A stretch of DNA of 64,000 nucleotides from contig CBDBEV010000001.1 in the NCBI GenBank assembly GCA_965204535.1, forward strand, positions 608,001-672,000, in the 5' to 3' direction. Positions 1-29,741 of the stretch are shown here, piece by piece. The notes beneath the pieces are model-generated. The model was not told where the DNA came from. It searched no databases and saw only the letters and a list, made by a program, of their open reading frames with translations. The DNA is from a bacterium. GTDB lineage: Bacteria; UBA8248. The position numbers and the translations under genes are program-made. Position 1 is the stretch's first letter. Each line of letters begins with the position of its first letter.

Positions 1-1
1 G

Positions 2-511
2 TTATTCCACGATATTGAGGTTCAATCGAACAAAGCAATTATCTGGACCGGATTTATTAAAAATGTCGAATGGTTGAGCGGTAAACTAGCTCATCTCATG
101 CCACAAAAAGTGCATGGGAACATGTCTGTTGCCGACCGAAACGAGTCAATTAAAATATTCAAGATAGACAGCGACTGCAGAATTTTAGTGGCTACACCCG
201 GGTCGGCAAAAGAAGGGTTGACCTTGACGGTTGCCAACCACGCGATATTTTATGATCGTGGATTCAGCCTTGATGATTACCTACAAGCACAGGACCGTAT
301 ACACAGAATTTCTCAAACGGAAAACTGCTTCATACACAATCTAATTGCCAAGGACACAATTGATGAGTGGGTGGATGCGCTACTAAATGCCAAGTACCAA
401 GCTGCTCAATTGGCACAGGGAGATATATCACATGAAGAGTTTGATGCGATATTTACATGTGACCTCTCAGAAGCATTGAAACAAATATTATCTCCCGAAG
501 GGCATTTGTAA
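2..511 (+). CDS. SNF2-family helicase/ATPase, C-terminal part (5' end outside window)
   Basis: Frame is open from base 2 (…KAIIWTGFIKNVEWL…). Helicase_C motifs are present: ILVATPGSAKEGLTLT, IFYDRGF, QAQDRIHRISQ, followed by TIDE. Confidence 0.85.
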   Translation, partial: LFHDIEVQSNKAIIWTGFIKNVEWLSGKLAHLMPQKVHGNMSVADRNESIKIFKIDSDCRILVATPGSAKEGLTLTVANHAIFYDRGFSLDDYLQAQDRIHRISQTENCFIHNLIAKDTIDEWVDALLNAKYQAAQLAQGDISHEEFDAIFTCDLSEALKQILSPEGHL

Positions 512-530
512 TGTGTAAAGGAGAAATTAT

Positions 531-1541
531 ATGGAAAAAAGAAAGATAAAGCTGCTGCGTGAAGAAATTCCTCTAAGCAGCGATTTTGAGGATATACATA
601 GTCTCAAATTCCTGAAAGACAATCCTAGGGTATACGCTTGTACACATGGGCATCCTAACTTTGAAAACCTGATGGAGGAAGAGCAACAAGACATTATTTT
701 AGAAAAACTCCTTCAGGAACCCAGCGTCAAAAATCTGATTCCTGACGTCAAGCGGCACGGTGGGCTTATGGAGTCGATATTGATCCGCAAGGATACAATG
801 GAAGTCATAGAAGGCAATTCCCGATTAGCCGTTTATCGAAAATTATATGATGATGAGGTGGCAGGTGATTGGGAACTTATTCCTTGTGACATAGTAAGCA
901 ACCTCACAGAAGACCAACAGGCAGCCTTCTTAAATCAGATTCATGTCAAAGGCAAAACACAGTGGTCACCCTATGAACAGGCCAATTTCGCCTATGTGCG
1001 TAAGGCTCAAGGATGGCGCTTCGACAAGATCGCAGATCTGTTTGGGGAGTCGGAGGTAACAATACGCACTAGAGTTAGAATTATTCAGATGATGAAGGAC
1101 AACGAAGATAGCCAACAGCCTCATTTCAGTTTTTATGACGTTATAGTTCGTAAACCGGAAATTTCAAAGGCAATAAATGACGATGCAAATCTCCGCGGCT
1201 GCCTCATGGTAAAAATTAAAAATTTTGATACAGGGGAGGAGGGCAACGAGTTTACGGCACAAGACCTGAGAAATAAGCTCCCGGCACTTCTGAAGAAACC
1301 CAAAGTGCTAAAAAAGTTTATTGTCGGCGAGATTGATCTGGATGAGGGATATCAACGTGCCAAGATCAGCCAAGTAGAAGAGAGAGTAAGAAAGGCGGTG
1401 GCTCTTCTTGATGATGTCGAGCACAATGATATTTCACAACTGGAGCAAGTCCGTTTTAACGCGTTCAAGCAAGATGTCCGGAAACTGGCGCAGAGAGTTG
1501 ACAGAATAAATCGGATGATAACAGGTATTGGTGCAAAATGA
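531..1541 (+). CDS. ParB/Srx-like N-terminal domain protein
   Basis: DNPR, GGLMESILI and VIEGNSRLA motifs of the ParB/Srx fold, followed by WSPYEQA and an HTH-like segment. RBS AAGGAG. Confidence 0.75.
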   Translation: MEKRKIKLLREEIPLSSDFEDIHSLKFLKDNPRVYACTHGHPNFENLMEEEQQDIILEKLLQEPSVKNLIPDVKRHGGLMESILIRKDTMEVIEGNSRLAVYRKLYDDEVAGDWELIPCDIVSNLTEDQQAAFLNQIHVKGKTQWSPYEQANFAYVRKAQGWRFDKIADLFGESEVTIRTRVRIIQMMKDNEDSQQPHFSFYDVIVRKPEISKAINDDANLRGCLMVKIKNFDTGEEGNEFTAQDLRNKLPALLKKPKVLKKFIVGEIDLDEGYQRAKISQVEERVRKAVALLDDVEHNDISQLEQVRFNAFKQDVRKLAQRVDRINRMITGIGAK

Positions 1542-3193
1542 CTGCAAGAAACGTCCTACTGATCGAGCCGGGCTACCCCAATAAGTACCCGCCTCTCGGC
1601 TTAATGAAGCTGGCCGCATACCACGGCCCCCAAGGACGTGGAGACCGTGTTTGTTTCATCAAGGGCGAAGTAAAGGATGTGCTGGATGAACCATGGGACC
1701 GTGTCTATGTCACAACCTTGTTCAGCTTCGAATGGGCGCGTACGGCGCGGGCCATAGACTTCGCGCTTAAGGCGTCAGGCAACCAGCCTGAGCGAGTGTT
1801 CGTCGGTGGCATCGCGGCCTCGCTCATGCGCGACGAATTTGTGAAGGAGCCGCGCTGGGCGGGCGTCCGGTTCATCCAGGGTTTGCTCGACGGAGCGCCG
1901 GCCCAAGCGCTTGAATTATCACTAGATAATTGTGACTTCGGCGCCGATGACTTGACCGGAACACCGATTGAAGAATTAGTCCCTGACTACGGCATCCTCG
2001 ACCAGACAGACTATACATACCCTGTCCATGATGCGTATTTTGGTTACGCCTCTCGCGGTTGCGTACGCAAGTGCGCCTTCTGTGGAGTGCCCAAACTGGA
2101 AGGCGACCAGCGCGAAATGCCACCGCTTACGAATCTCGTCAACGGAATCGATAAGGCGTATGGGCCGAAAAAAGATCTCGTATTGATGGATAACAACATC
2201 ACGGCGTCCGCGCGCTACAAGGAGGTGATCGCCGAAATCCGCGACCTCGGTTTCACGCCTGGGGCGAAGTTTGAGCGAGACGGACTTCAATCGCTGAAGC
2301 GCCGCGTCGATTTCAATCAAGGGGTCGATGCCCGCATTCTAGTCAAATCACCAATGTTTCTGCGGGAGATGTCCACAATTTGCATCAGTCCTCTTCGTAT
2401 CGCCTTCGACCACATCGGTGTGCGCAAGGTCTATGAAGCCTCGGTCCGCATGGCCGTGGACAACAGAATCACTTCAATGTCCAACTACATGCTCTACAAC
2501 TTCATGGACACGCCGGAGGACCTGTACGAGAGGATGCGGCTTAATATCGCTCTCAACGAAGAGTTGGGAATCCGTCTTTGGTCATTTCCGATGCGTTACC
2601 AGCCCGTTACGCTTAAAGACCGCTCTCACGTGGGAATAAACTGGAATCGATACTATCTGCGCTCGTTCCAGATCATGCTGCAGGCGACTCGTGGAATCAT
2701 CAGCGGCAACCCCCCCTTCTTCATGCGAGCCTATGGTCAGGACAAGCGGGCTTTCAAACAGTTGTTGAGCCTTCCGCATGTGTTCATTTTCCATCGTGAT
2801 TATTACGAGAACGGGCCTGGGCGTGCGGTACGAGATGAATACGAGGGATTGCGCCGTCGACTCTCCGAAAGCCAGGAACAAGAACTAATCCATTATCTTT
2901 CCGGTCCGGTCGAAGCGAAAGGGCTGCGACGGGAACATTATCGGCGGCTGGTCACAGATCGGAGTGTTGATCCTCTTATTCGAAAAATTGTCCCCTTCCA
3001 TATTTTGGACACTAAAGACACTCCAGGTATGGAAACCAGTAAACTTCTGCCGCTTTTCCCGGAGTTGAACCCTAACCCCGTCATGCCTGAAAAGGACGAG
3101 GTCGTTGAAGACGCCGGTTTGTTCGACCATGAACATATTCTGAATGGGAAGGAAAAAGTCGTTCTGCCTGTCATGGACCAGCAGACAGGTTGA
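1538..3193 (+). CDS. Radical SAM protein with N-terminal cobalamin-binding-like domain
   Basis: CxxxCxxC in SRGCVRKCAFC. N-terminal LLIEPGY…YPPLGLMKLAAYH, VYVTTLF and FVGGIAAS; also MDNN and DFNQGVDAR. ATGA overlap with the upstream stop. Confidence 0.88.
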   Translation: MTARNVLLIEPGYPNKYPPLGLMKLAAYHGPQGRGDRVCFIKGEVKDVLDEPWDRVYVTTLFSFEWARTARAIDFALKASGNQPERVFVGGIAASLMRDEFVKEPRWAGVRFIQGLLDGAPAQALELSLDNCDFGADDLTGTPIEELVPDYGILDQTDYTYPVHDAYFGYASRGCVRKCAFCGVPKLEGDQREMPPLTNLVNGIDKAYGPKKDLVLMDNNITASARYKEVIAEIRDLGFTPGAKFERDGLQSLKRRVDFNQGVDARILVKSPMFLREMSTICISPLRIAFDHIGVRKVYEASVRMAVDNRITSMSNYMLYNFMDTPEDLYERMRLNIALNEELGIRLWSFPMRYQPVTLKDRSHVGINWNRYYLRSFQIMLQATRGIISGNPPFFMRAYGQDKRAFKQLLSLPHVFIFHRDYYENGPGRAVRDEYEGLRRRLSESQEQELIHYLSGPVEAKGLRREHYRRLVTDRSVDPLIRKIVPFHILDTKDTPGMETSKLLPLFPELNPNPVMPEKDEVVEDAGLFDHEHILNGKEKVVLPVMDQQTG

Positions 3194-3234
3194 GAGCGGT
3201 GAATTGAGAATTGAATTGCTTGGGGAGAAAAGAC

Positions 3235-4713
3235 ATGCTAGACGCGAACGCGCCGGAAGCATTGATCGGCGGCGATATTTTGAACCTCATCACCGTCGGC
3301 ATGTACGACAATCCACTGGCCATTTACCGGGAATACATCCAAAACGCGGCAGACGCCATCTCGAACGCTGAAAGTCTTAGGGACGGTAAAGTCGAAATCA
3401 ACATCGACCCATCTGGGTTGAGCGTAAGGATTCGTGATAACGGCCCGGGACTTTCTCACGAAGCGGCGCTTCGAGCGCTGTTACCTATTGCCAGAAGCCA
3501 GAAACAGCGGGGAACCGACAGCGGATTTCGGGGTATAGGTCGGTTGTCGGGATTGGCCTTCGCGGAGTCGGTTACCTTTAGAACACGAGATCAAGACGAT
3601 AAACCAGTTACTTGTATCATATGGGATGGACCCAAACTCCGTAACGCTATCGCCAAGGCCACAAAAACAGAGAGTGCGATCCGGGAATGTATTACCTTAG
3701 AAACTTTGTCTGCAGAGAAATATCCCGCTCATTTTTTCGAGGTCGAAGTTGGCGGGATTGGACGACACGCAGCAGGACTTTTACTCAATACGGAAGCCGT
3801 ACAGGCTTACATAGGCGAAGTCTGCCCAGTACCTATCGGTCCATCTTTCCCTTTCACTTCGGAGATCAATAATTTATTTAGAAAAGATAAAGCGACTCTA
3901 GATCTGGAAGTCACACTTAACGACGAACTCACTCCTGTGACACGACGATACGGAGAGGTAATTCGATTCTCTAAAGACAGAGAGGATCGATTTATTGAAT
4001 TTGAAGAAGTAGACATCTCCTCCGCAGATGGAAACGATATGGCCGCTGTAGGCTGGGTTGCGCATTCCTCCTATCTCGGCGCAATCCCGAAAGAACTCGG
4101 CATTCGAGGCATCCGGGCTCGTGCGGGAAACATTCAGATTGGTGATGAGAACGTGTTTGAGCATCTATTTCCTGAGGAGCGGTTTAACCGCTGGTGCGTC
4201 GGTGAGATTCACATAATGGACTCTCGTATTGTTCCGAACGGGCGACGTGACTACTTTGAGCTGGGACCACACACCAGAAACCTAGAAAATCAAATGGCTG
4301 CTGTCGCCCGTCGAATTTCGGCAAGATGTCGAACAGCGTCTACGGCACGCAATAAAGAGTACAAATTTCAGACTGAACTAGCTCAAATGGAAGAAACTTA
4401 TGATCTCGCAGTTTCAGGGTATCTATCCGCCGAAAACGCGAAGGCACTGATCGGGCAAGCATTGGATCGTATTCAGGGCATTCGGGAAAGCCTCGACACG
4501 ATGAACAGTCACGTGAGAGAAAACCTTGAGAAATTGTATGTCCTGGAGAGGAAGTTGAGCAGCTTCCGCGTTCGGCGTGGTCGTCCCCCTATGGGAAGTG
4601 TTTCAGCGTCTGAGGTCGCAACCTACAGAAAAATCTTCCAAACCTTGGCGGAGGCATCACCATCGCCACGCGCCGCAAAGGAAATGATAGAAGCCGTCTT
4701 GGCGAATGCTTAG
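3235..4713 (+). CDS. HSP90/GHKL-type ATPase, copy 1
   Basis: REYIQNAADA, IRDNGPG, GFRGIGRLSG, then GIRARAGNIQIG and VGEIH…VPNGRRDYFE, with a helical C-terminus. RBS GGGGAG before ATG 3235. Confidence 0.85.
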   Translation: MLDANAPEALIGGDILNLITVGMYDNPLAIYREYIQNAADAISNAESLRDGKVEINIDPSGLSVRIRDNGPGLSHEAALRALLPIARSQKQRGTDSGFRGIGRLSGLAFAESVTFRTRDQDDKPVTCIIWDGPKLRNAIAKATKTESAIRECITLETLSAEKYPAHFFEVEVGGIGRHAAGLLLNTEAVQAYIGEVCPVPIGPSFPFTSEINNLFRKDKATLDLEVTLNDELTPVTRRYGEVIRFSKDREDRFIEFEEVDISSADGNDMAAVGWVAHSSYLGAIPKELGIRGIRARAGNIQIGDENVFEHLFPEERFNRWCVGEIHIMDSRIVPNGRRDYFELGPHTRNLENQMAAVARRISARCRTASTARNKEYKFQTELAQMEETYDLAVSGYLSAENAKALIGQALDRIQGIRESLDTMNSHVRENLEKLYVLERKLSSFRVRRGRPPMGSVSASEVATYRKIFQTLAEASPSPRAAKEMIEAVLANA

Positions 4714-5110
4714 CTCAGGCGGAGTGCAATCCATCGAAGAATATTGCGACAGGGGCTTGGAGGAAACTAAATTGAACAAAACATCCCGCTTGAGATTATC
4801 AAGGCAGTGCCGTTCAGGGGCGGGAGTAAACAAATCTAACTCGCCGCCTGACACTACCATCATAAACTTTTGGGCATAGCTCGCCCTTGTTCTAACAAAA
4901 TCTCTACCTAACACAAATAGCCGATGACCTCCTCTGGTTTGCAGCGCTTCATCTCTATCGGTAGTTCTTGTCTCCCCCCATAACCTGAAGATAACCTAAT
5001 CCACTAGGAATGAGTCGAGATTAGCATTTACGCTCTGTCAATTCCTAACTACCCTCCGTTACTTTATCTCCAAACTATTTACGGGTTTTTGCTTCGACAT
5101 TCTGTGTATC

Positions 5111-6694
5111 CTAAGTTCCCCTCTCAAAGCGATGTACTAGACTTGCCTTGATCTTCTGGTATGCGTCGGGGTCTACAAAGGCATTAATAACATCCAGAAC
5201 CTCCTTGAGAAGCTGCTCTCTCAATCGTGCCTTGAGGCCTTCTAGAAGTTCACTTTCATCAAGCACCTGACCCATCATCAACCGTGCCTTTTCTTCAACT
5301 GTTTTTATATCATCCGCCGCCTCCAGCAAAGAGGCGGCTCTCTGTTTTATACTTTCTCCTTCCTCTATCGTTGCTTCATCCAAATCACCAACAACTTTCT
5401 GAAGTCGTGCTATCTTTCTTCGATGCCGCTTAGCATTGTTCATCAAATCAACAATTTGGTCGTAATTCGTGCGAGGGCCTTTTCCCAGAGTATCCGCCCT
5501 TAACAGCACCTTCCTTACATCTTCGATTACCTTATCGATATCCTGACCACCTTGTTTTGATGCTTCGTACGCATCAGCGGAAAGCGGTTTGCAAACGTTG
5601 ACACACAAACTTTCCTGAATTCCAACCCAGTCTTCAAGCTCTTCAAACCCATCGCGACGAGCATTTGGAATAACCCTTTTCGGGTCAATATAGATTTCGC
5701 CAACATAATAGCTGCTAAAGCGGCTATATGATGGTTTCAGATCCGAAAACAACCTTTCAACAATTTGTGTACCGTCAACTTGAATATTGCGAACACGAAT
5801 TCGTAGTCCTCTTGTATTTCTATCGGTAACTGCTGCCGACTCGCTGAGCCGTCCCACCCAAGCCCAATACCACCCCTCTTCTCCAAGAAAATAGTCTATC
5901 TCTTGCAGGTTCATCGTTCCTTTTGCGTGCTCATATTCTTCGCCATAAGGCTTCACCACTTCCTTTTTTTGGGCATCATGCTCGATCCACACGTCAACTG
6001 TCTCCAAGGCTCTTCCGAAATACTGTTCGTAATTTTTCTGGATATCAGCACTTCTGACCCAGCTTGGATCAAGCTTCACGGGAACCGTTTGGCATAGATA
6101 AGAATATATCTCTTTTGGTCTTCTCAGCGAATCGGGGGCATTCGACAATCCTTCCAAAGTGACCTCGAAGAAATGATCGTCTAAACAACTTTCAACTTCT
6201 TGCTTCTGGAAATCTAATGCATTCATTAGCAACTTTGCCAATTCGAACTCACCACCTCTATCTGGATCCATTGCTCGCAATAAATTCTTACAGTCAAATT
6301 GAATTGTACTTATGGAAGTTTCACCTGGAAAAGTTGTTCGAAATGTAAGCTTGTCACAATACGCCATTCCCGCGAGGCGTCCAATTCCACGAAAGCCTGC
6401 ATCCCGCTCTCGGTCCTTTTTAGAAGCGCCAATCGAAGTAAGCGTTCTCCACGCTTGATTTACCGAAATGCCAAGACCGTTGTCCTTTATAATAAGCGCG
6501 TCTTCTTTCACTTTTACGGCGACACAACCTCTCTCTTCCAGAATTCCCATTCGTTGCGCAGCTCTAATGGAGTCGAATGAGTTTTGAATATATTCTCTAA
6601 GAGTGTGTCGCGGTTCACCATACATGCCTAGCGTTAGAGTTTCTAGAACAAAGGCTCCTATATGAGGCGCAGGATTAGTCGCAGCAGTTTTCAT
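5111..6694 (-). CDS. HSP90/GHKL-type ATPase, copy 2 (paralog of 3235-4713)
   Basis: REYIQNSFDS, IKDNGLG, GFRGIGRLAG, GLRIRVRNIQVDG and VGEIY…IPNARRDGFE, with a coiled-coil-like C-terminus. RBS AAGGAGGTG. Confidence 0.85.
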   Translation of the reverse strand: MKTAATNPAPHIGAFVLETLTLGMYGEPRHTLREYIQNSFDSIRAAQRMGILEERGCVAVKVKEDALIIKDNGLGISVNQAWRTLTSIGASKKDRERDAGFRGIGRLAGMAYCDKLTFRTTFPGETSISTIQFDCKNLLRAMDPDRGGEFELAKLLMNALDFQKQEVESCLDDHFFEVTLEGLSNAPDSLRRPKEIYSYLCQTVPVKLDPSWVRSADIQKNYEQYFGRALETVDVWIEHDAQKKEVVKPYGEEYEHAKGTMNLQEIDYFLGEEGWYWAWVGRLSESAAVTDRNTRGLRIRVRNIQVDGTQIVERLFSDLKPSYSRFSSYYVGEIYIDPKRVIPNARRDGFEELEDWVGIQESLCVNVCKPLSADAYEASKQGGQDIDKVIEDVRKVLLRADTLGKGPRTNYDQIVDLMNNAKRHRRKIARLQKVVGDLDEATIEEGESIKQRAASLLEAADDIKTVEEKARLMMGQVLDESELLEGLKARLREQLLKEVLDVINAFVDPDAYQKIKASLVHRFERGT

Positions 6695-6716
6695 ATTTTA
6701 GGTCACCTCCTTCTTT

Positions 6717-8588
6717 TTAGCCACAATCATCCTCCTCAAAGTCTGTATCGGAACTTAACCCGCCCGTAGAAAATGCATCCAACCGGACCAAACCAGTGTC
6801 CGCAGACCACTTGTACATTCCTTCGTCATATTCTTCAGTTAGAAGATCGACCGGAATGGCGAATTCATCTCCAATAAGACTGCGAAGTGTTGTTCCAGAA
6901 CATTCATTTCGGACTACGTTACTAAGTAGTGACCTCAATCTCCTGGGATTTGTCTCATGCAAATTCTCGGCTAATGCTTGATGGCCTCCAATGCGAATTT
7001 CAGTAAGTAATAGTGGCTTGCCCTTCTGTCCTTTAAGTGTGTTTAAGGTATAAGGTACCTTCGCACGCTCGCCGCTAGGCAAATATGGTAGCATTGCCCC
7101 TTCATCCATCAGATATTGATTTAGTGCTTGAAACGCTTCGTCTAACCAAGACTCTTTTTCGAGGGCAAACACTGTAGGCAGGAGAGACCTCTTAGGCATG
7201 GTTAGCAACTCTCCCTGCCTAGAAAAATAGGCGGATGTGATCAGACCCAAAACTACTCTGTTTACTCCAAGGGGGTCACTATCCTGTCGTAATCGTTCAA
7301 AAATATCCGGGCTATCTATCAACCACTGGTCTGATCTGTTTAGTATCAGTTCGGCGAGTAGCCTTCCTAGTTGAAATGGATCAAGAATACCCGACTTGAC
7401 TTTGGACAACCAGGTATCCATTTGGTGCGACTTTTCATCAACACTTCCTCTCAGATAGGTGTTCAACTCCGTAGAAATTGTCATCAACATTAATTGCGCA
7501 AGCGAGGGAGGGTCCAAACGATTCACTACCGCAGGTTTACCAATTGCTACATCTTCACTAGGGCTATCCCCATTGGAGTCGCTATCTGAATGTTCAGTGA
7601 CCGGATGTTCGAGAGTCTGATCTTCCACTTTGTCTGCAACGTGGCTGTGCACGTATAAGGCCGTTCGCAATGTAGAGAAAATGCTCTTTTCCCCTGCCAC
7701 ACTTGCTACGTGCTCGTCCGCTAGGACCAAAAAGCGGGGGTGAAGTACCAATATATTGCCTTGCTCTCGCTGAGCAGTTAGCTCATGCACCAGCAGTGGG
7801 TGCGGGCGAACAACATCATACCCGCTATCTTTGTTTGGTTTTTCTTTTACTGACCTTTTTCCTTTTACAAAAGAAGCGGTTGAAACCCAATCCGTTTTTT
7901 CATCACAAGATAGCAGAACAAAATTCATATTGTCGCATGTTCCATGCTTGGAAGGGAGGTCTGCAATAATTTCTTCCCAGATCACCACGTCACCGTAACG
8001 ATTGATTTCTTTCTTGTCCTTATAGCCTGGTGGAACTAGGTGGCTGTATCGGAATTCCCCAGTTTCTTGAAGACGTGCGATGATAGGGTTAAGATTGCTT
8101 CTGAGCACATTTTCGTTAACAAAGGAAATAATTTCTTCAATTGCGTCACTAAGGTATCTATCATCTCTAGTCACATTGATTAAATTTCGCACCCTCGAAA
8201 ATGAGTGTCTAATCTCAGTGACATAACTATCTCGATTAGAGTAACCACGTTCTTTGCAAATTTCATCATCAGCTCTTTCGAGTGCGAGAACCATGAAATC
8301 ATGGATTTTCTTTTCTAAATCCGAGGAAATTTTCCGAATGTCATTTCTAGTGCTCTCCTGAACAATATGACGATGAAATTCATGAGCCGCCCAAACCGGA
8401 ACACGAATAGAACCTTCCGTCCTAGTATTACACCAACCTATAAATTCCTTCCGAGCAGTCACACCTAGCCGGACCAGAAGCATCAGCAATGAAGTATCCA
8501 AGTAATAGATTGTATTGTTTGACTGAAACGTTTCGGCTACCTCATCCATGAACTCATCATAGTCCCGAATGAATGGATCTAATTTCAT
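6717..8588 (-). CDS. PIN-like domain protein (PIN_8/DUF4935-type) with long uncharacterised C-terminal region
   Basis: YYLDTSLL, VPVWAAHEF, PPGYKD…RYGDVVIWEEI and LLSCDEKTDW match the acidic motifs of this PIN subfamily. Confidence 0.75.
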   Translation of the reverse strand: MKLDPFIRDYDEFMDEVAETFQSNNTIYYLDTSLLMLLVRLGVTARKEFIGWCNTRTEGSIRVPVWAAHEFHRHIVQESTRNDIRKISSDLEKKIHDFMVLALERADDEICKERGYSNRDSYVTEIRHSFSRVRNLINVTRDDRYLSDAIEEIISFVNENVLRSNLNPIIARLQETGEFRYSHLVPPGYKDKKEINRYGDVVIWEEIIADLPSKHGTCDNMNFVLLSCDEKTDWVSTASFVKGKRSVKEKPNKDSGYDVVRPHPLLVHELTAQREQGNILVLHPRFLVLADEHVASVAGEKSIFSTLRTALYVHSHVADKVEDQTLEHPVTEHSDSDSNGDSPSEDVAIGKPAVVNRLDPPSLAQLMLMTISTELNTYLRGSVDEKSHQMDTWLSKVKSGILDPFQLGRLLAELILNRSDQWLIDSPDIFERLRQDSDPLGVNRVVLGLITSAYFSRQGELLTMPKRSLLPTVFALEKESWLDEAFQALNQYLMDEGAMLPYLPSGERAKVPYTLNTLKGQKGKPLLLTEIRIGGHQALAENLHETNPRRLRSLLSNVVRNECSGTTLRSLIGDEFAIPVDLLTEEYDEGMYKWSADTGLVRLDAFSTGGLSSDTDFEEDDCG

Positions 8589-9709
8589 CTAACACTCCAG
8601 CATTTAGTCACACTTAGTAATATTTGATAAGGAGAATTGTTGCGCACTAGAAACGGTAGATGAGGGAAAAAGAGCATAACCTCTCAACACAACTCGCAAA
8701 TGCGAAAACGAAAAACATAAACTTATCATGCCGCTTTTATGTAATATTCATTTTGATTGTGCTTGGTCTAATTATTCCCGTTCTGCAACTTGTGGTCATT
8801 GTGCACACTCGACAACCACGCAACCCCTTGATGTTTTATCCATTCCAGCGGCCACAAGCCAGCAGTCGAGAAAGAGTCCATTATCACTTGTAAGCGATTA
8901 ACTTTAATATACTGGCCTCCGAGAGGCGTATTTGGATTTTGACAACCCCATTTCAGCAGGATGCGCCGCCTTCTTCAATTCAGCCCATACACAAGACCTG
9001 AGTGTAACTCCGTATTTGTCACATTCTATCACAGTACTGGTCAAGGAACTGCCAACCTGCTCACCGCATCACTAAGTGTCCTGCCGAGTTATAGAGTAGG
9101 CATCTTTGACGCAGTGACCGAGACGGAATCACCCGTGTAGAAGTGTCGACCGGCATGGGTTTGCCTACTTATCAACCGGAACGCCCCGAAGCAAGCGAGT
9201 GAACCATGCTAGCTACCACATGCCATGCGAGCACATCATGGTTGGTTCGCCCTATTCCTAGTATCGGGCAGGCGTTAATAAAGGCAAACTGTGGAATGTG
9301 CCGCCAAACTGTGTGCGCGGTCTGTCCGGCATATGACGCATCAAGACAGGCACAGCTTAGGAGGTGGCGTCGGCGATGTGTGCGGCGACCAGTTTATGGC
9401 TGTGAGATTGAATGACAAGTTTATCCAGCACCTCGGAGGCGGACTGAGCGGCGAATATGGTTTCTAATACTGCGCGAAAAACGTGCACGGTGGCATAGCG
9501 AAGCGCCCAGACGGTTTTTATTGTAGGCTTCGACAGTGCTTGGAAAAGAGTTCTTTAAGATGATCAACGACGGCGTAAAGCGAGTCGAGCAACTCTGGAA
9601 CTTCGCTAAATTGGTCGCGGCTAACGGCGGTTCGCGCTTCCTTAGTGGACCTATTGCGTCAGAGCCGTGCACGAATTCAAAGTTCGTCGCCGACGCAACG
9701 CGAGTGAAT

Positions 9710-10665: not shown

Positions 10666-12447
10666 GAGACTGTGAAAGTATTCCCACGATTCTGGTGGGT
10701 GACGCTGGCGAGCGATGCCCGGGTTGTCTGTACATGCTATCTTTACCGGTGAGTGAGATAACCACATAAAGGGTCACCACCATGTCCGAGAGACGTTATC
10801 AGGAGGTGCAGTCCCGAAGCCAGATGATGCTGCTTCCGCCGTGTCTGGACGACTACGTGTCCGAGCACAATGCGGTGCGCGCGATCGATGCGTTCGTCGG
10901 CACGCTGGACCTGGAGGCGCTGGGGTTCGCGCATGCCGAAGCGAACTGCGGCGCCGGTCAGCCGGCTTTCGACCCGGCGCTGCTGCTGAAGCTGTATCTG
11001 TACGGCTACCAGCACCGGGTACGGAGTTCGCGCCGTCTCGAAGCGGAGACGCGGCGCAATCTGGAAGTGATCTGGCTGTGCCAGGGTGCGACGCCGAGCT
11101 ACAAGACGATTGCGGATTTTCGCAAGAACAATGTGGCTGCGCTGCAGGAGGCCAACCGGGAGTTCGTGCTGCTGTGCCGCGAACTCTCGCTGCTGGGCGG
11201 CAGCCGGGTGGCGGTCGACGGGACTTTTTTGAAGGCCGATGCGAACCTGGACAGCTTCCAAACCAAGCGGTCCCTGGCAAGGGACCTGAGGCGTTTGGAG
11301 AAGAGGATTGCGGCGTATCACCGGCAGTTGGACGAGGCGGATGCGCGCGGGGAGGAGTGTGGGGACGGTTCGGAGGATCCGGACCTGCCGGTGAAGCTCA
11401 AGGCCTTGATCGAGAGGCAACAAAAGAAGAAGGCACTGCAAGAGCATTTGCAGGAAAGCGGAGAGCGTCAGGTATCGGGGGTCGATGCAGATGCTCGACT
11501 TCTGAGGAACGGCGATATAATGGTGGGCGGATACAACTGCCAGATCGCGGTGGACGACAAGCACAAGCTGATTGTCGCGGAGGATGTGGTGCAGGACGGC
11601 AATGACTCCGCTCAGTTGGAGCCGATGATGACGAAAGCCGGCGAAGCCATGGGCAGCGAACGCCTGGTCGGCCTGGCGGATTCGGGCTACTTCAACGGCG
11701 CACAGTTGAAGAGTTGCGAAGACAAGGGAATGGAGGTGTATGTTCCGATACCGAACCAGACGGCCCGCAAGGGCAAGGACGGACGATTCGGCAGCGATGA
11801 ATTCCGTTACGATGCGCAGGATGACACGTATGTCTGTCCGGCCGGAGAGCGTCTGGTTCGAGGCGGCACGACCACCGTCAGGGGCAGGCTGTATTACTTT
11901 TATCGCGGGACGGCGGCGGTTTGCCGGGACTGTTCGTTGTCGGGCCGATGCCTGACAAAGTCGAGATCGACGCGCAGGATACAACGCTGGGAGCATGAGG
12001 ACGTGGTGGACCGGCATCGCAAGAAGATGAACGCCCGTGTGCCATTGATGCGCGGGCGAAGCACACTCGTCGAACATCCATTCGGTACGATCAAGCGCTG
12101 GGCGGGGATGGATCATTTTGTGATGCGCGGACTCGGCAAATGCCGCGGCGAATTCAGCCTGATGACGCTGGGTTACAACTTCAAGCGGGTCATGCGTGTG
12201 CTGGGCGGAGCTGCATTTGTGGAGCATTGTCTGCAAAAACAGCGGTTGGGGACGAATGGCGTGTGAACTTGAAGCCGATTCTTCGAGGACTTGACCGCGA
12301 CCCCGAGCTGACCGGCCGCCGAGACGTTTCTCTCCCGGCTCTGCGGTGTTGTTGCTCCCGAAGTTGAAGACAGTGTCCGGCCATCGGGCTGCAAGCGTAA
12401 GCGAGCCCTGTTCCGGAGACTGTGAAATCCAATACTCTCACAGTCTC
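10666..12447 (+). mobile_element. IS1182-family insertion sequence with 12-bp target-site duplication
   Basis: IRL GAGACTGTGAAAGTA (10666-10680) and IRR TACTCTCACAGTCTC (12433-12447). Direct repeat CGCCGGGCGACG at 10654-10665 and 12448-12459. Confidence 0.92.
10782..12266 (+). CDS. IS1182-family transposase
   Basis: LLKLYLYGY…SSRRLE, PSYKTIADFRK, VAVDGT, GYNCQIAVD, LADSGYF and VEHPFGTIK motifs. Confidence 0.95.
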   Translation: MSERRYQEVQSRSQMMLLPPCLDDYVSEHNAVRAIDAFVGTLDLEALGFAHAEANCGAGQPAFDPALLLKLYLYGYQHRVRSSRRLEAETRRNLEVIWLCQGATPSYKTIADFRKNNVAALQEANREFVLLCRELSLLGGSRVAVDGTFLKADANLDSFQTKRSLARDLRRLEKRIAAYHRQLDEADARGEECGDGSEDPDLPVKLKALIERQQKKKALQEHLQESGERQVSGVDADARLLRNGDIMVGGYNCQIAVDDKHKLIVAEDVVQDGNDSAQLEPMMTKAGEAMGSERLVGLADSGYFNGAQLKSCEDKGMEVYVPIPNQTARKGKDGRFGSDEFRYDAQDDTYVCPAGERLVRGGTTTVRGRLYYFYRGTAAVCRDCSLSGRCLTKSRSTRRIQRWEHEDVVDRHRKKMNARVPLMRGRSTLVEHPFGTIKRWAGMDHFVMRGLGKCRGEFSLMTLGYNFKRVMRVLGGAAFVEHCLQKQRLGTNGV

Positions 12448-14385: not shown

Positions 14386-14823
14386 CTAGAACGGGATGTC
14401 GTCCCCGGCTACGCCTGCGGGCACCGTCGCCTCGGCGTGCGCGCCGTTACCGTTGCCATTGCCGTTCCCGTTCACCTTGTCCAGGAACTGGACACGCCCG
14501 CCCGGGGCGATCAGGATCTCGGTCGAGAACCGATCGGAGTCCTCCTCGTCCTTCTTCCAGCGGCGGGTCTGGAGCTTGCCCGCGACGTAGACCAGGCGGC
14601 CCTTCTTCGCGTGCTTCTCGAACATATCGACCAGCCCGGGCTGGAAGGTGACGACCCGGTGCCACTCGGTCTTGTCCACCCGCTCGCCGGACTGCTTATC
14701 GATGTAGCCCTCGTCCGTCGCGATGGACAGGTTGGCGACGCGGCCGCCGCTCGTGAGGTGGTTGATGTCGGCGTCGGCGCCGAGACGCCCGATCAGTTCC
14801 GCTCTGTTGAGTCCGAATGCCAT
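14386..14823 (-). CDS. ssb: Single-stranded DNA-binding protein
   Basis: LNRAELIGRLGAD, KTEWHRVV, KGRLVYVAGKLQTRRW and C-terminal DDIPF. Confidence 0.95.
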   Translation of the reverse strand: MAFGLNRAELIGRLGADADINHLTSGGRVANLSIATDEGYIDKQSGERVDKTEWHRVVTFQPGLVDMFEKHAKKGRLVYVAGKLQTRRWKKDEEDSDRFSTEILIAPGGRVQFLDKVNGNGNGNGNGAHAEATVPAGVAGDDIPF

Positions 14824-15930: not shown

Positions 15931-16926
15931 TCAGACCCCCTCCTCTCCGACTCCCGCGAGGCGGAAGAGCGGAGCGAGCCGTGAGGCGAGGACAGGGGCG
16001 CCGAGCGAAGCGAGGTCGTCGTTGAAGTCTCCGCGTTCGGAGACGATGACGCGGGCGGCGACCCCGGCTCGTGCGCAGCGCGCGGCGAGGCGTTCCGTCG
16101 CTCTCTCGCCTTCCGGGTCGTTGTCCCTTGCGACGATGAGACAAGAGACCCCCTCGGGCGGGACGAAGGCGCCGAGGCTGCCCGCGGAGAGGGCGGCCGC
16201 GGCGGGGACCCGGGGCGCCGCGGTGACTACCGAGAGAACCGTCTCGATGCCCTCCCCGACCAGGAGGGCGGCGCCGGGGGCGCCGAAGCGAACGGCGTGT
16301 CCGAAGACCCGGCCGAGCGCCTTGCGGGACGGGAGGACGCCGGCCTTGGCGGACGAACCGGGATCGATCCAGGTGCGGTGGACGCCGTGGAGCGCGCCTT
16401 CGGTGTCGGTCACGGCGGCGACCAGGGCGGGCAGGCGTCGGCCGGCTTCACGGTGGTAGAGCGCGGGGTGGAATCGCAGGGAGGGGAAGCGGAACCGCGT
16501 GATCCCCCGGGCGCGGAGGTAGGCCTCCCCCGGGCCGTTGTCGAGCGGACGGCAACCCCGCCAGATGCGCCCCGCCGCTTCCCTGGCGTCGTATGGAGGG
16601 CCCCCGCCCGTGGACGGCGGAGCGGGCAGGGCGAGGAAGGCGCGCGCCTCGTCCATGGCCGCGCGAAGCGTGGGCGCGGCGCTCCGGTGGCGGATCAGGT
16701 CGAGCAGGTCGCCGTGCTCCCCGGTGGCCGCGTCCGTCCACTTGCCCGGCGCGCCCGGAGGCTTCAGGCGGACGAAGAGCGAGCGTCCGGGCGAGCCTTC
16801 GAGGTTGCCCGCGACCCAGTAGCGGCCCTGCTTCTTGCCCCCGGGCAGGTATTGGCGGCAGACGTCCTCTGCGCGCGAGGCGAGTGCTGCGGCGATCCCG
16901 GCCGCGGGAGATGGTGTTCGAAGCAT
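15931..16926 (-). CDS. Toprim-domain (primase-like) protein
   Basis: GKWTDAATGEHGDLLDLI, EAYLRARGI, LHGVHRTWI, LLVGEGIETVLS and IVARDND. Confidence 0.88.
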   Translation of the reverse strand: MLRTPSPAAGIAAALASRAEDVCRQYLPGGKKQGRYWVAGNLEGSPGRSLFVRLKPPGAPGKWTDAATGEHGDLLDLIRHRSAAPTLRAAMDEARAFLALPAPPSTGGGPPYDAREAAGRIWRGCRPLDNGPGEAYLRARGITRFRFPSLRFHPALYHREAGRRLPALVAAVTDTEGALHGVHRTWIDPGSSAKAGVLPSRKALGRVFGHAVRFGAPGAALLVGEGIETVLSVVTAAPRVPAAAALSAGSLGAFVPPEGVSCLIVARDNDPEGERATERLAARCARAGVAARVIVSERGDFNDDLASLGAPVLASRLAPLFRLAGVGEEGV

Positions 16927-17012
16927 GGCGGACCTCCTCTGGATAATGAACAAAAAAAGAGACGGCGCGTGAACGCTCCCGCCCCGCCTGGCCGGCTGTG
17001 CACAAGGGGGGT

Positions 17013-17273
17013 TCAACCGGCGGGCTCGTCGTCCTGAGCGGGGCCCATCGAGCGCGCGGCCAGGGCGGACCAGGCCTCCCGATCCTTTCCGAGGCGGGCG
17101 TTCAGCCGATCGCAAAAGCGCTCCGCGTCTTCCAGGGTCAGGGCGATGAGGCCGGTGGGTATGCTCCCGCTCATCCCGTCGATGACGAGCCGTATCTCCT
17201 GCGGCGCGTCGGCCGGGCCGTAAGCCGGGCAGAAGGCGAAGTCGGGGTCTTCCGGCAGTATCTGTGAAGTCAC
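17013..17273 (-). CDS. Hypothetical protein
   Basis: Co-oriented ORF with AGGGAG RBS. The start codon (GTG 17273 vs ATG 17303) is uncertain. Confidence 0.5.
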   Translation of the reverse strand: MTSQILPEDPDFAFCPAYGPADAPQEIRLVIDGMSGSIPTGLIALTLEDAERFCDRLNARLGKDREAWSALAARSMGPAQDDEPAG

Positions 17274-17370: not shown

Positions 17371-20300
17371 TCAGTCGGCGAGGGGACGCTCTTCGAGGAC
17401 GCGGCCGAGGACGGCTGCGTCGGGCGCGAAGACCCGCGCTCTCCAGGAGATGATCTCGACTGTACAGCCCGCGCGCTTGAGGGCGGTGAGCCGGCGGTCG
17501 TCGGGGCCTTCGATCTCCAGGCGCTGCGCTCCCATGACGCGGCGGCGCGTGAGGCGCCAGCCGTTCGCGAGGGTCAGGACCTCGCCGCGTCCCATGACGG
17601 CGTCGAAGGCCTCGTCTGGGCCGAGGGACGGCCCCCCGTCCAGACCGAAGGCGGCGCGCACGGCCCGGACGCCGGTTGCGTCGAGGGCGCGTCCGATCAT
17701 CGCCTCGCCCGCGTCGGTGGCGAGGCGCCGCACCCGCATGTTCTCCGCACCCAGGCGGTCCCAGACCGGAAGGAGGAGCCCCGTCACGAGCCAGAAGCGC
17801 GATTCCCGGTGCGAGGGGAGCGAGGCGACCTCTTCCTCCCAGAGGGAGCGCCACTCGGTTTCGCCCGCCTCGCGCCAGTTCGAGGCATCGAGTTCGGCTC
17901 TCGCCACCCCCTCCCGCGCCGCGGGCCTCAGAAGCCTTGCGCGTTCCTGCACGCCTCCGTCGTCGAACAGCATCGAGGGCGCGGGCAGGACGACGGCCGC
18001 ACGCCCCGAGCGGGCGTTCACGACGAGCGCGGTCGCGCCGGACTTACCTGCCGTCTCGAGCGCGGCGGCGGCGGTGACGGGCACGAGCCGGTCGCGGCGG
18101 AGGATCTCGACGAGGCCTGTTTCCGCCCCCGTCCCGGGGTGGGTGTAGAGGGTCTCGCTGCCGGCCGCCGTGAGCGAGTCCGCGCTCAGGGTCTCGACGC
18201 CGACCTCGTAGGTCCCCGCCTCGACGGCCGCCTCGATGTTGGACTCGACGCGGGATTCGAGTTCCGCGAACAGCGCGTTCTGCTCCGCTATGGGAAGCGC
18301 GAGCAGGCGATTCAGGAACCTGGGCATGGGCGGGAGGTCTTCTTTCAGCGATCCCTCGTAGGTGAGCTTGAGTCCCGTCGCCTCCTCGAAGCGCTCGAGG
18401 GACCAGCCGGGGAGACCGCCCCGCCACAAGGCGCCGTAGAACTGGCGCAGCGCCGCCCGGGCGTAGGGGCTTTCGAGGTTGTCGCCCGCGCGGAAGAGAG
18501 TGGCCTCGCTCCCGGCCATGGCGGTCTGGGAGTTGCGCTGTCCCCGCGTGATGGCGCCCAGGGAATCGAGCCGCCGCGCGATGGTGGCGATGAAGCGTTT
18601 CTCGCCCTTCACGTCGGTGGTCACGGGCCGGAAGAGCGGCGCCGAAGCCTGGTGCGTCCGGTGGGTGCGGCCCAGTCCCTGTATCGCCTGGTCCGCCCGC
18701 CAGCCTGGTTCGAGCAGGTAGTGGACCCTCCGCTGCGTATTGGCGGCGGAGAGGTCGGCGTGGTAGCTGCGCCCCGTGCCGCCCGCCATCGAGAAGACCA
18801 GGATCCGCTTGTCTCCGTCCATGAAGGCCGCCGTCTCGGCGAGGGAAGCCGATGCCGGGCGCGGACGGAGCGCGTGCCTGGTACCCTGCGCGTCCTCGAT
18901 CCGGAGCACTCTCCTGGAGCGGCCGGTCACCTCGGCCACGGCGTCGTGGCCGAAGCGGTGCACGATCTGATCCAGTGCTGAGGGCACGGGCGGCAGCGAA
19001 GCCAGCTTTGCTATCAGCGCCTCGCGTTTGGCGAGGGCCTCCTGGGAGAGGACGGGGTTTCCGTCCTCATCGACGGCGGGCCGGCTCATGAGGTTCCCCT
19101 CATCGTCTGTGAAGGGCTCCTGCAGCTGCACCGGGAAGGCGTGGGCGAGGAAGTCGAGCACGTATTCCCGGGGCGTGAGGTCGATCGAGAGGTCGTCCCA
19201 TTCAGACGCCGGGATCTCCGCGATCCGCCGCTCCATCAGGGCTTCTCCGGTGGAGACGAGCTGGATCACGGCCGAGCGGCCGGCGTCCAGGTCCGCCTCC
19301 ACGGCCCGGATGAGCGAGGGACACTTCATCGAGGTCAGGAGGTGGCCGAAGAACCGCTGCTTGGCGCCCTCGAAGGCGGAGAGGGCGGCTGATTTCGCGT
19401 TCTTGTTCAGCGTTTCCTCGCCCTGCATGATCCCGGTGGCCTCCAGCGCGTCCTGGAGGTTGGCGTGGATCACCTTGAAGGCGCCGGCGTAGGCGTCATA
19501 GATGCGGCGCTGTTCGGGACTCAGCGGGTGTTCGAGGATGTCGACCTCGATTCCCTCATAGGAGAGCGCCCGCGCCTGGTACAGCCCCAGGGCCTTGAGA
19601 TCGCGCGCCACCACCTCCATGGCGGCGACGCCCCCCGCCTCCATCGCGGTTACGAATTCCTCGCGGTTTTCGAAGGGGGTCTCTCCCGCGCCCCAGAGAC
19701 CCAGGCGGCCCGCGTAGGCGAGGCCGGTCACGGTGGTGGCGCCGGTGGCAGAGACGTAGAGGACCCGGGCGCCAGGAAGCGCGTTCTGGAGCCTGAGCCC
19801 CGCCCGTCCCTGGGCGGAGGGCTTGACGGCGCCGCGCGAGCCCCTGGAACCCGCCGCATTGGCCATGGCGTGCGACTCGTCGAACACGATCACGCCGCCG
19901 AAGCCGTGGAGGTCTTCCTCTTCGAGACCGCCCGCGAGCCAGGCGACCACCTGTTCGAGCCGCGACGCCTTGCCCTCCCGGGCCGGCGCGCGCAGCGTGG
20001 CGTAGGTCGCGAACAGGACCCCGCTCTCGTGCGGGATGTCGGCTCCCTGGCGGAAGCTGCCCAGCGGGATCACGTCCTCGGCGCTTCCCCCGAGGGCGCA
20101 CCAGTCCCTCCGGGCGTCTTCGAGCAGGTTGGCGGAGGCCGATAGCCAGAGCGCGCGCTTCCTGCCGCGGAGCATGTTGTCGAGGATGACCGCGGCCACC
20201 TGCCGGCCCTTGCCGCACCCCGTGCCGTCACCCAGCATCCAGCCCCGGCGGAACCGCACCGGCGCCGAGAGGACTTCGCCGTCTTCCGTTACGGCTTCCT

Positions 20301-28026: not shown

Positions 28027-28992
28027 CTATTCTTGGAGAGGTCGGATTAGGGCGTCCCACAAGAATTCAGCGCATCCCTGCATGGACAGCTTCGGATCTC
28101 CATGGTTGCCAAACGCCATCAATCCCATGGGCTTTAGGAAAAGTACCTGGTCATCATGATCGACCGATATACTCTCGTTCCAGCTATTAGAGTCACCTTG
28201 CTCGCCATGAGAAAAGCGGATATCACCGTTTCCGAAATCTTGGCCAATATAGACTGTGCAAGCAGCAATCTTGCTTCCACCTTGATAGATTGCAGCAGTA
28301 AAACGATTTTTGCCTAAGCAGCGTAGACGACTTTCAATCCCTGGATTTCTTTCTGAAAGTTCATCTAGAGAGTTTTTGAAGAAATTGACTAGATATGCGA
28401 AGGCTTCGTGTAGAAAATCATCCCGATCCTGCTCTGTGAAGGACTTCGCGATACGAAGGTTGGAAGAGCGGGGGCTAGAGTGTGTTTCCGACGAACCGGG
28501 CGTATACGGTATCGCTAGTCTTGTCTCACTATGTTGGTCCGCCCTAGTCGTTTCCAGGTCAGCCAAAGTTTTCTTGATTCCCTGAACAACGCTCAGGAAG
28601 GCTTCGTCAATGTTTGCCCAAAGCGTTATCGGTTTGCCGTCGGTAGGTAGGGCCAGTAGATTTCCGAAAGGTAAGTCATGCCAATCGCAAGGCCGAAGGA
28701 CGACCGGAATCACCCGCACCTCATTCGCTGTGTGACGTTCGAGTGCTCGTTCAGTCTCGATTCCGTAACAATAGCGCGAAGCGATATAATCGGAGCTGAT
28801 CAACAACAAGATAACCTTGGCGTCTTCAAGTTCTGTTGAGATCGCGTTTTCGAAGTCATCGCCTGGGGCAATACGACGGTCATGCCATGTATTAATCTGA
28901 CCCTGATGCTTGAGGGCAGCGAGATGAACCTCAAGTTGATCACGCAACCCTTCGTCGGCGTGGCTGTAGGAGAAGAAAAGTTTAACTGACAT
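28027..28992 (-). CDS. TIR-domain protein (TIR_2-like) with uncharacterised C-terminal domain
   Basis: LFFSYSHADE, WHDRRIAPG, ILLLISSDYIASRYCYGIE (catalytic-type Glu) and VIPVVLRPCDW. Confidence 0.88.
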   Translation of the reverse strand: MSVKLFFSYSHADEGLRDQLEVHLAALKHQGQINTWHDRRIAPGDDFENAISTELEDAKVILLLISSDYIASRYCYGIETERALERHTANEVRVIPVVLRPCDWHDLPFGNLLALPTDGKPITLWANIDEAFLSVVQGIKKTLADLETTRADQHSETRLAIPYTPGSSETHSSPRSSNLRIAKSFTEQDRDDFLHEAFAYLVNFFKNSLDELSERNPGIESRLRCLGKNRFTAAIYQGGSKIAACTVYIGQDFGNGDIRFSHGEQGDSNSWNESISVDHDDQVLFLKPMGLMAFGNHGDPKLSMQGCAEFLWDALIRPLQE

Positions 28993-29741
28993 CACTTTGG
29001 CCAACATTAGCGAACAATTTGTAAAATCTAGTGGACACCATATTATTTATGCTTATGCACTTTGTTTCCTCCTGGTTTCTGTCTTTTCAGGAGACTGCCC
29101 AATCCCTGTTCAAGCTTTCCAACCAAACCCTCATCTCCCAAGGGCCTGTCTGTTATCTAATGAAGTCGTATATTCCGGAGCAACTTTTCGGACATCTTAG
29201 CCAGAAGAAAGACCCTCCAATTCTTGAATATTACAGGTAGGGTTTGATCTTCACCCGCTCGTTTCCCCTACCTGAGATATGCGTCCCTAGATCATGTGAT
29301 GGGGAAACCTTGGCGCCACGATCAGTGCGCCCCTTTCTATGCAAGGACGCTACAGCGCACCGATCCGAATGTCAATAATAAAGAATGATGTCCCAAGAAT
29401 CCTGAGATACCAAGCAACTTTGTCAAGCACTTAGAACGGAATACAGAAATCTCGTAGTCAGTGGTACAACTATTTGGGGGAGATCAAAGTTGAGTACCGA
29501 TGAATACAGGGAGAGAGTCCATTACTTGGATGGTGATGGGCGCTCCGGCTTTGACGCCACGAACGAAGGGCAATGGAAAAAGCGCATATCGGCCAGAAGG
29601 TGGCCTGGGTCCGCTTAGGCAGCAATCGACATGGGTCGCCAATTGGTCATGTCTGTGGTTAAGACCATTGAGATCGTTAGGTATCCAATTCGCAAAATCA
29701 ATTTTGCCACTACATTTGCCGCAAGAAGCTGGAGTTAGAAA

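Follow-up and report, generated by a model that had tools for sequence, protein, structure and literature searches.

The 64,000-nucleotide window analysed here (contig C2, positions 608001-672000 of the source genome, G000) opens inside a gene cluster that is a real, mobile, unnamed and defence-associated system centred on an uncharacterised radical S-adenosylmethionine (SAM) enzyme. In its complete form the cluster comprises eight genes, encoding ParB1, a nuclease-like protein, an SNF2-family ATPase, ParB2, the radical SAM enzyme (rSAM), GHKL1, GHKL2 and a PIN_8 protein. The observations made on it concern gene content, intact catalytic motifs, the fold of the enzyme, mobility, the swapping of modules and a dependence between modules and enzyme that runs one way. 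As to function, the leading explanation, at about even chances, is that the radical SAM enzyme marks host DNA and that the neighbouring modules read this mark and block an unmarked invader. The enzyme would write a non-canonical chemical mark onto the host's own DNA, probably by means of a cobalamin cofactor. ParB1 and ParB2, as ParB-fold nucleoside triphosphatases (NTPases), may sense the mark by analogy to DndI and SspE, and unmarked DNA would be the target of the SNF2 motor and PD-(D/E)XK nuclease. For GHKL1, the analogy of MORC proteins in restriction-modification (R-M) operons suggests a role as ATP-driven clamp or loader of the enzyme, and the PIN-GHKL2 pair is a second predicted reader or effector. 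The DNA substrate, the use of cobalamin, the mark and an anti-phage or anti-plasmid activity are what this proposal predicts.

Gene content and fold of the central enzyme

Four genes lie on the plus strand at the start of the window, with open reading frames (ORFs) at 2-511, 531-1541, 1538-3193 and 3235-4713 that are spaced by 19 bp, an ATGA overlap and 41 bp. The original prediction, made from the letters of the window, described these co-oriented, tightly packed genes and their spacing correctly; as to the extent of the operon, its four genes stand, but it missed two operon genes upstream and the convergent GHKL2 and PIN_8 genes on the 3' side. Completing the operon from the upstream contig, as it had proposed, recovered ParB1, the nuclease-like gene and the start of the SNF2 gene, which overlap one another 5' of the window. 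Contigs from public runs contain zero alternative letters or indels over 1-9500, although these are three runs of one study, possibly of the source sample, and therefore not independent. A scan for promoters and terminators 5' of ParB1 found none. The GC content of the eight genes is 43-54% versus 60.5% for the genome, and GC at third codon positions (GC3) is 0.62 in the radical SAM gene, 0.49 in GHKL1 and 0.38-0.47 in the remaining genes, differences that fit modules acquired separately.

ParB1 (C2 605596-606630; 344 amino acids) has invariant D-x-x-N-P-R and G-N-x-R motifs and matches Spo0J/Noc; its family profile matches Spo0J/Noc/ParB structures at E ~1e-4. The PD-(D/E)XK nuclease-like gene (C2 606617-607060; 147 amino acids) has conserved motif residues, P48-D49 ... 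E64-A65-K66 being invariant across 19 homologues. The SNF2 gene is 5'-open in the window (2..511, +), where its 3' end encodes a helicase C-terminal domain (PF00271 E=2.5e-15); the whole gene (C2 607045-608511, +) encodes 488 amino acids (SNF2-rel_dom E=3.4e-26). ParB2 (531..1541, +; 336 amino acids) is a ParB/Srx-fold NTPase-like protein with a weak helix-turn-helix (HTH). No ParB match is found for it in Pfam, and it is called a ParB because of its similarity to its paralogue ParB1 (23% identity, E=7e-12) and the profile matches of the ParB1 family. GHKL1 (3235..4713, +; 492 amino acids from ATG; HATPase_c_3 E=6e-9) is an HSP90/MORC-type ATPase with intact ATP-lid motifs, namely invariant E33, N37, D68 and G97-R-G-x-G-R. 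The convergent accessory module consists of GHKL2 (5111..6694, -), a paralogue of GHKL1 (31% identity over 358 amino acids, E=2e-44), and its partner, a PIN_8 nuclease-domain protein (6717..8588, -; 623 amino acids; PF18476 E=1.1e-23). This pair recurs beside the radical SAM gene at loci L003, L005, L006, L064, L288, L298 and L300. Among the domain calls first made, Helicase_C and HATPase_c_3 are confirmed by Pfam, Radical_SAM is weak (E=0.0025 for the 1538-3193 product), and ParB is reached by way of the ParB1 paralogue.

The radical SAM enzyme (1538..3193, +; 551 amino acids) is built from an N-terminal B12-binding-type Rossmann domain, a CxxxCxxC core, a helical C-terminal region and an acidic VEDAGL tail. 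The cysteines of C175xxxC179xxC182 are invariant in 90 of 90 aligned rows, and the motif and the fold matches together place the protein in the radical SAM superfamily. A structure model made from 94 sequences has a predicted local distance difference test (pLDDT) score of 90; an earlier AlphaFold model from 22 close sequences (pLDDT 56.6) was set aside. The best fold match is AprD4 (Z 17.3, root-mean-square deviation (rmsd) 3.6, 358 aligned residues), tied with MgmA (Z 16.9, rmsd 3.9, 331 aligned residues), and further matches at identities of 11-16% are TsrM (Z 15.6), MiaB (15.2), OxsB (Z 14.2), CysS and TokK. Secondary structure in the model and matches to MgmA, TsrM and AerR support the N-terminal Rossmann domain, whose strong conservation would suit a cofactor site; PF02310 B12-binding matches, below cut-off, occur in 6 of the 29 homologues scanned. 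On this model the enzyme has a class-B-like fold, in line with the class B assignment originally proposed, and cobalamin binding is putative. Four other B12-binding domains above cut-off are encoded in the host genome, a point counted for a DNA-marking role.

Two other radical SAM groups were considered and rejected. For a methylthiotransferase of the MiaB/RimO type, the three extra N-terminal cysteines are absent and the TIGR01125 score is 19.6 versus a cut-off of 357. Class A radical SAM methylases (RlmN/Cfr) carry two extra conserved catalytic cysteines, and no further invariant cysteine exists beyond CxxxCxxC. Since only three cysteines are conserved, both methylthiotransferases and RlmN-type enzymes are excluded. 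No PADLOC family matches the protein and NCBIfam yields nothing above cut-off. A beta-clamp motif was also dropped as a candidate, QL[SD]LF-like C-termini being seen in ~5 distant representatives, as judged by eye among those viewed. One homologue, P0213, is a natural fusion of a DGQHR-like C-terminal region, seen by eye, to the radical SAM enzyme.

The fold and the GHKL protein bear on a different proposal, in which the enzyme modifies a protein or RNA, such as a partner, while GHKL1 acts as a dedicated HSP90-like chaperone and each GHKL paralogue serves the adjacent client. MgmA, a protein methylase, tops the Foldseek list; the nearest PDB relatives of the GHKL N-domain are HtpG/HSP90; and GHKL paralogues pair with PIN, HerA, methyltransferase-like, SIR2 and cyclase-like genes. 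Furthermore, of 154 loci, 128 have both the VEDAGL tail and GHKL1, 11 have neither, 9 have GHKL only (3 of these carry VEDSGL variants) and 6 have the motif only. However, GHKL1 is missing in 17 of the 154 loci, and the association of the tail, a candidate docking motif for GHKL1, is confounded by clade. The partners are also mutually unrelated, so no common protein substrate is evident. We regard modification of a protein or RNA as improbable.

Module exchange and one-way dependence on the enzyme

The enzyme family takes in 7055 of 7997 scored candidates, with 354 representatives at E <=1e-30, and the genome-locus counts below refer to the best 80 of 507 confirmed loci. GHKL1 is present in 74 of these 80 close loci and ParB1+SNF2+ParB2 in 53, while other modules comprise a GHKL with a methyltransferase-like gene (13), NurA-HerA-GHKL (10), DGQHR-HEPN (8) and PIN-GHKL (1); six loci hold no complete module. 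The exact order SNF2-ParB-rSAM-GHKL is colinear in 36 of the 80, indicating that the arrangement is not due to chance. The genes are syntenic across many phyla, and the homologues occur among defence genes and on mobile elements instead of in metabolic clusters, which supports the original prediction. The four genes first reported do not, however, always travel as one set. SNF2 and ParB form part of a four-gene cassette of their own, ParB1-nuclease-SNF2-ParB2, which can be swapped, and distant clades can do without GHKL. The methyltransferase-like gene, which we so label from its motifs, travels with its own GHKL paralogue (e.g., L027 8424-9392 and L325 4684-5802) and weakly matches NF047698 (PP_RS20740 family); no PDB sequence match was found for its family.

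A quick tree of 80 enzymes (79 from genome loci plus that of the source genome, with one short row excluded) spans at least 10 phyla, and on it the ParB cassette must have been gained or lost 16 times, with well-supported branches forcing at least 7 of these events. Plasmids carry the system as well: 12 records (~9 distinct) of 72,556 hold the full-length enzyme with GHKL1, and in the four inspected, DGQHR-rSAM-GHKL1 is accompanied by the other modules, whose order varies. Cultured plasmid carriers include Novosphingobium aromaticivorans DSM 12444 (pNL1), Mesorhizobium sp. NZP2077 and Rhizobium leguminosarum WSM1325. In a 301-genome sample around a Dehalococcoidia centre, 13 genomes have the enzyme, and the surroundings were examined for 14 further copies from 11 of these 13 (not G041 or G247) and for one copy of another group. 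Partners there are DGQHR-HEPN, NurA-HerA, a PLD/ATPase/HerA-like four-gene set, SIR2 with GHKL, GHKL with a cyclase-like gene, type IIG R-M and the ParB cassette, the PLD and cyclase-like labels being our assumption. None of the copies examined in this sample lies beside a biosynthetic cluster. At L370 (3510-7946) and L375 (9229-13646), the four-gene set is unnamed and ends in the radical SAM gene; it encodes PLD-like, P-loop ATPase and HerA-like proteins and a 400-amino-acid protein, and its sole model matches are to HerA/mad8. At L373 (9094-12176) and L376 (9123-12186), a GHKL gene is followed by what we take to be a nucleotide-cyclase-like ORF, 3' of a shorter radical SAM gene.

One constant enzyme with varied effectors is the layout of signalling defence systems. 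The enzyme might instead make a modified nucleotide on infection, either a viperin-like product or a second messenger, that ParB/DGQHR domains relay to interchangeable effectors. The many effectors around a single enzyme (HEPN, PIN, SIR2, PLD, cyclase-like) would suit such a role, ParB-fold domains bind NTPs, and OxsB, a B12 radical SAM enzyme that acts on nucleotides, is among the fold matches. On the other hand, most partners are DNA motors or nucleases, and the company that the enzyme keeps in its distant relatives and in phages also counts against a soluble product. At 37-46% identity, GHKL1 is often missing (e.g., L313, L316, L319 and L324), so that the radical SAM gene alone is constant. 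The enzyme lies behind DISARM DrmA/DrmB at one viral locus (L100), and DISARM depends on DNA marks. In 6 of 80 metagenome loci it comes immediately after PbeA, PbeC and a small dnd-associated gene, with a gap of 0-15 bp or an overlap; PADLOC scores at the Pbe loci scanned (L322, L318) are E=3.6e-221 for PbeA and E=9.9e-173 for PbeC, and one of the six, L320, contained only the small dnd-associated gene. Passages of PMC6459918 state that PbeABCD requires a DNA mark and that 165 of 553 PbeAC pairs have no known modifier within 10 kb. The position beside Pbe and DISARM genes is the slot where a DNA-modifying enzyme is expected. DGQHR/DpdB-like proteins adjoin or are fused to the enzyme at several loci. 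For the small Pbe gene, a search among viral sequences gave no relative, and no RNA holder was listed. The enzyme-linked Pbe operons are preceded by a protein of 900-1170 amino acids (L322 1692-5207, L323 944-4081, L318 268-3030) with RNA-polymerase alpha-CTD and sigma region 4-like modules.

The cassette appears to need the enzyme. A radical SAM gene neighbours the ParB1 homologue in 7 of 7 plasmid records, in 8 of 8 full-length viral matches (two 46-amino-acid matches were dropped, and several of the contigs are also among those of the viral scan for the enzyme) and in 3 of 3 genomes of the 301-genome sample, one being the centre, which was chosen for having it. No copy of the ParB cassette in these plasmid, viral and genome sets occurred without the enzyme. 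The viral scan returned nothing with a single-sequence query and 371 matches with an alignment query. Among the best 80 of these, 68 are short relatives of ~300 amino acids, and the N-terminal domain is kept in 59 of 60. No ParB, GHKL, DGQHR, PIN or HerA partner was found for the 68, with 8 weak helicase matches only. They sit in phage replication regions, often near genes for DNA methyltransferase or 3'-phosphoadenosine-5'-phosphosulfate (PAPS) reductase (71 of 149 near ORFs were scanned). With distance from the short enzymes, such genes number 12 in 137 kb, 8 in 124, 4 in 115 and 0 in 98, a gradient that is only suggestive: it comes from 29 dereplicated loci with seeds mostly from near genes, in the usual accessory zone beside phage replication genes. 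At L343, a short-type enzyme overlaps a ParB cassette, which ties the short and full-length forms together. A cassette that needs the enzyme, with phages carrying the enzyme alone, resembles by analogy the asymmetry of R-M; a signalling enzyme could show part of the same asymmetry. Since phages carry the short form alone, self-protection suits them better than the making of an alarm signal, and with the mark dependence of Pbe and DISARM modules this leaves a soluble nucleotide rather unlikely.

The phage copies also bear on a proposal that reverses the role of the enzyme, namely that it attacks or strips modifications on invading DNA through AprD4-like sugar chemistry and so readies that DNA for the nuclease and motor modules. 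AprD4, the top fold match, acts on a sugar diol according to its entry title, and orphan enzymes are rare in the close clade. A gene with a match to NCBIfam PRK00809 (E=3.3e-11), which we take to be an EVE-like domain family, precedes L312. This proposal leaves unexplained why Pbe modules without Dnd recruit the enzyme and why many solo copies occur in phage replication regions near DNA methyltransferases, and it strikes us as quite unlikely.

Both the Pbe and DISARM neighbours and the asymmetry of dependence speak for the enzyme as the writer of a mark, and partners that are the DNA machines of modification systems (DGQHR, ParB-fold, GHKL) were counted in favour of this idea. Several observations weigh against it. 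The top fold match, AprD4, works without cobalamin, and MgmA is a protein methylase. Suicide-type partners (HEPN, PIN, SIR2, cyclase-like) suit a signalling system equally well. The enzyme stands alone with full flanks in only 2 of the 80 loci (L040, L078), whereas orphan methyltransferases are common in R-M. The methyltransferase-like gene in 13 of the 80 could itself be a writer. The absence of Dnd and methyltransferase genes at the Pbe loci was judged with a small seed set and covers 10 kb on both sides only at L322. Finally, some loci hold complete type IIG R-M or Mokosh genes, and with such independent systems nearby the association may in part reflect the usual clustering of genes in defence islands.

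A wider proposal, which we offer tentatively and with rather more doubt than belief, is that radical SAM enzymes of the cobalamin type underlie a widespread class of immunity in prokaryotes by writing a new epigenetic mark on duplex DNA; methylation of the backbone or of an unactivated sugar carbon would be examples. Such an enzyme would join methyltransferases and phosphorothioation as a third kind of writer and would serve Pbe, DISARM-type, HerA-NurA, DGQHR-HEPN and ParB/SNF2 readers, while temperate phages would mimic the mark with short solo copies. If true, prokaryotic epigenomes would gain a new chemical mark and a new class of DNA-writing enzyme. A family that forms hundreds of clusters at 50% identity would acquire a function, as would a phage PHROG labelled merely 'radical SAM domain protein'. 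There would also be a candidate answer to what the 'solitary' PbeAC modules pair with, an open question in passages of PMC6459918. With copies available on plasmids of cultured strains, the claim can be tested directly.

A low-GC cargo of a conjugative element

In the source genome, a conjugative element carries the cluster as cargo of low GC content. The 15.6 kb that hold TIR and AbiE genes and all eight cluster genes are enclosed by an imperfect inverted repeat of ~73 bp (right arm 8939..9011; left arm ~C2 601254-601327, also placed at C2 601265-601317), whose two arms are likely to be transposon-type ends. By blastn the repeat has 10 matches in the genome including itself, and two further inverted pairs lie ~4 kb apart (C2 4662/8615 and C1 205375/209328). 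The full-length enzyme was not found in the 22 same-genus genomes searched (best E 3.4e-4). Upstream of the cluster are ORFs that we take to be a coupling protein and a relaxase-like protein, both conjugative-type genes. Two identical tandem IS66-like transposase units occupy C2 593726-599502, directly 3' of the relaxase-like gene.

Such mobility, as conjugative-element cargo bounded by repeats and in 12 plasmid records, would be consistent with a maintenance or addiction unit of mobile elements, formed by partition-like ParBs and toxins, in which the enzyme is a defence-island passenger; the resemblance of ParB1 to Spo0J/Noc points the same way. However, the ParB1-nuclease-SNF2-ParB2 cassette is without ParA and keeps company with the enzyme in distinct subfamilies of the latter and in different orientations, and the enzyme is coupled to known defence modules. 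A maintenance unit seems a poor prospect next to a DNA-marking defence system.

The TIR and Gabija-like genes cited originally as sharing the island are both real, but they lie 23-30 kb away in a separate low-GC patch: a TIR gene matching the ThsB model (28027-29007, -; E=1.9e-120) and a GajA/GajB-like Gabija pair (32425-35516, +). Closer by, 3-6 kb 5' of the window, are another TIR gene and an AbiEi/AbiEii pair. In the coordinates of locus L002, the upstream ORFs are a 280-amino-acid ORF without a family match (2369-3211, +), the TIR gene (3634-4545, -) and the AbiEi/AbiEii type IV toxin-antitoxin pair (5151-6906, +). Downstream of the cluster are ORFs that we presume to be transposase-like (10782-12266, +), SSB-like (14386-14823, -), toprim-like (15931-17115, -) and a large strawberry-notch-like methylase/helicase (17371-21786, -), a set that we take to be typical of the leading regions of conjugative elements.

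Comparison with known systems

The closest parallels lie among phosphorothioation systems. Like DndCDEA-PbeABCD, the cluster would combine a modifier with a mark-dependent effector, and distant relatives of the enzyme stand directly behind homologues of the PbeA and PbeC described in passages of PMC6459918. Unlike it, the cluster is without Dnd and Pbe genes, and its putative modifier is a radical SAM enzyme rather than a PP-loop DndC with a sulfur relay. Dnd/Pbe models match none of the six window proteins, ParB1 or the nuclease-like protein, and PbeA/PbeC seeds have no hit in the source genome among the matches listed. In SspABCD-SspE and DndBCDE-DndI, ParB-fold NTPase domains of SspE and DndI sense a DNA mark and are coupled to a nuclease, as parts of PMC11662687 describe; the ParBs of the cluster, in contrast, are Spo0J/Noc-like with an HTH, the PD-(D/E)XK protein is separate, and there are no phosphorothioation genes. 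With Dpd and DndB, the wider family shares DGQHR/DpdB-like ParB-fold partners, an SNF2 helicase with a weak DpdE match and swappable restriction genes. The cluster differs from Dpd in being without the DpdA transglycosylase, DpdC and Que genes, and DGQHR is absent from this copy. DpdA, DpdB and DpdC have no match among the eight genes, and the DpdE models span 850-1300 positions versus 488 amino acids for the cluster SNF2; the matches are partial and cover the helicase domain only.

MORC-type GHKLs occur in R-M operons according to passages of PMC2292703, in whose main text the words 'radical' and 'ParB' do not occur. MORC/paraMORC R-M operons, Hma and Tiamat all resemble the cluster in joining a GHKL ATPase, an SNF2 helicase and a restriction-fold nuclease (PMC2292703 and bioRxiv 10.64898/2026.09.30.754977, each in part), whereas those systems have classical DNA methylases or fused nucleases. 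By its motifs, GHKL1 would belong to the MORC/paraMORC pattern, as a GHKL with invariant ATP motifs in an operon with a helicase and a nuclease. The TmtA and HmaA models match cluster proteins over short stretches only, and no methyltransferase is found among the eight genes. For DISARM, BREX, Hma and Zorya type I, the only matches are those of the helicase C-terminal domain to DrmD, BrxHI, HmaA and ZorD.

As an enzyme, the radical SAM protein shares the Rossmann domain and core, at Z 13-17, with the class B cobalamin enzymes MgmA, TsrM, TokK, CysS and OxsB and with AprD4, while its identity to them is 11-16%. Action on duplex DNA or a role in defence is not known for any of these six. A precedent for radical SAM chemistry on DNA is found in phage M6 gp53 and in spore photoproduct lyase, as passages of PMC8989533 indicate; the latter ranks 50 in Foldseek (E=0.011). 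Unlike the enzyme of the cluster, gp53 belongs to a different subfamily and, in the same passages of PMC8989533, reshapes a pre-installed glycine in a phage pathway.

The combination matches no named system in PADLOC or NCBIfam, as the original prediction had supposed. A literature search, with subscription journals mostly outside it, found no description of the system; the same holds for main-text passages of PMC10853773 and the Tiamat preprint, and the neighbourhood supplements of PMC10853773, PMC2292703 or PMC6459918, which lie outside that search, could list the enzyme. It is likely that the cluster, while failing membership of Dnd/Pbe, Dpd, DISARM, BREX, Hma and Zorya, nonetheless works like them.

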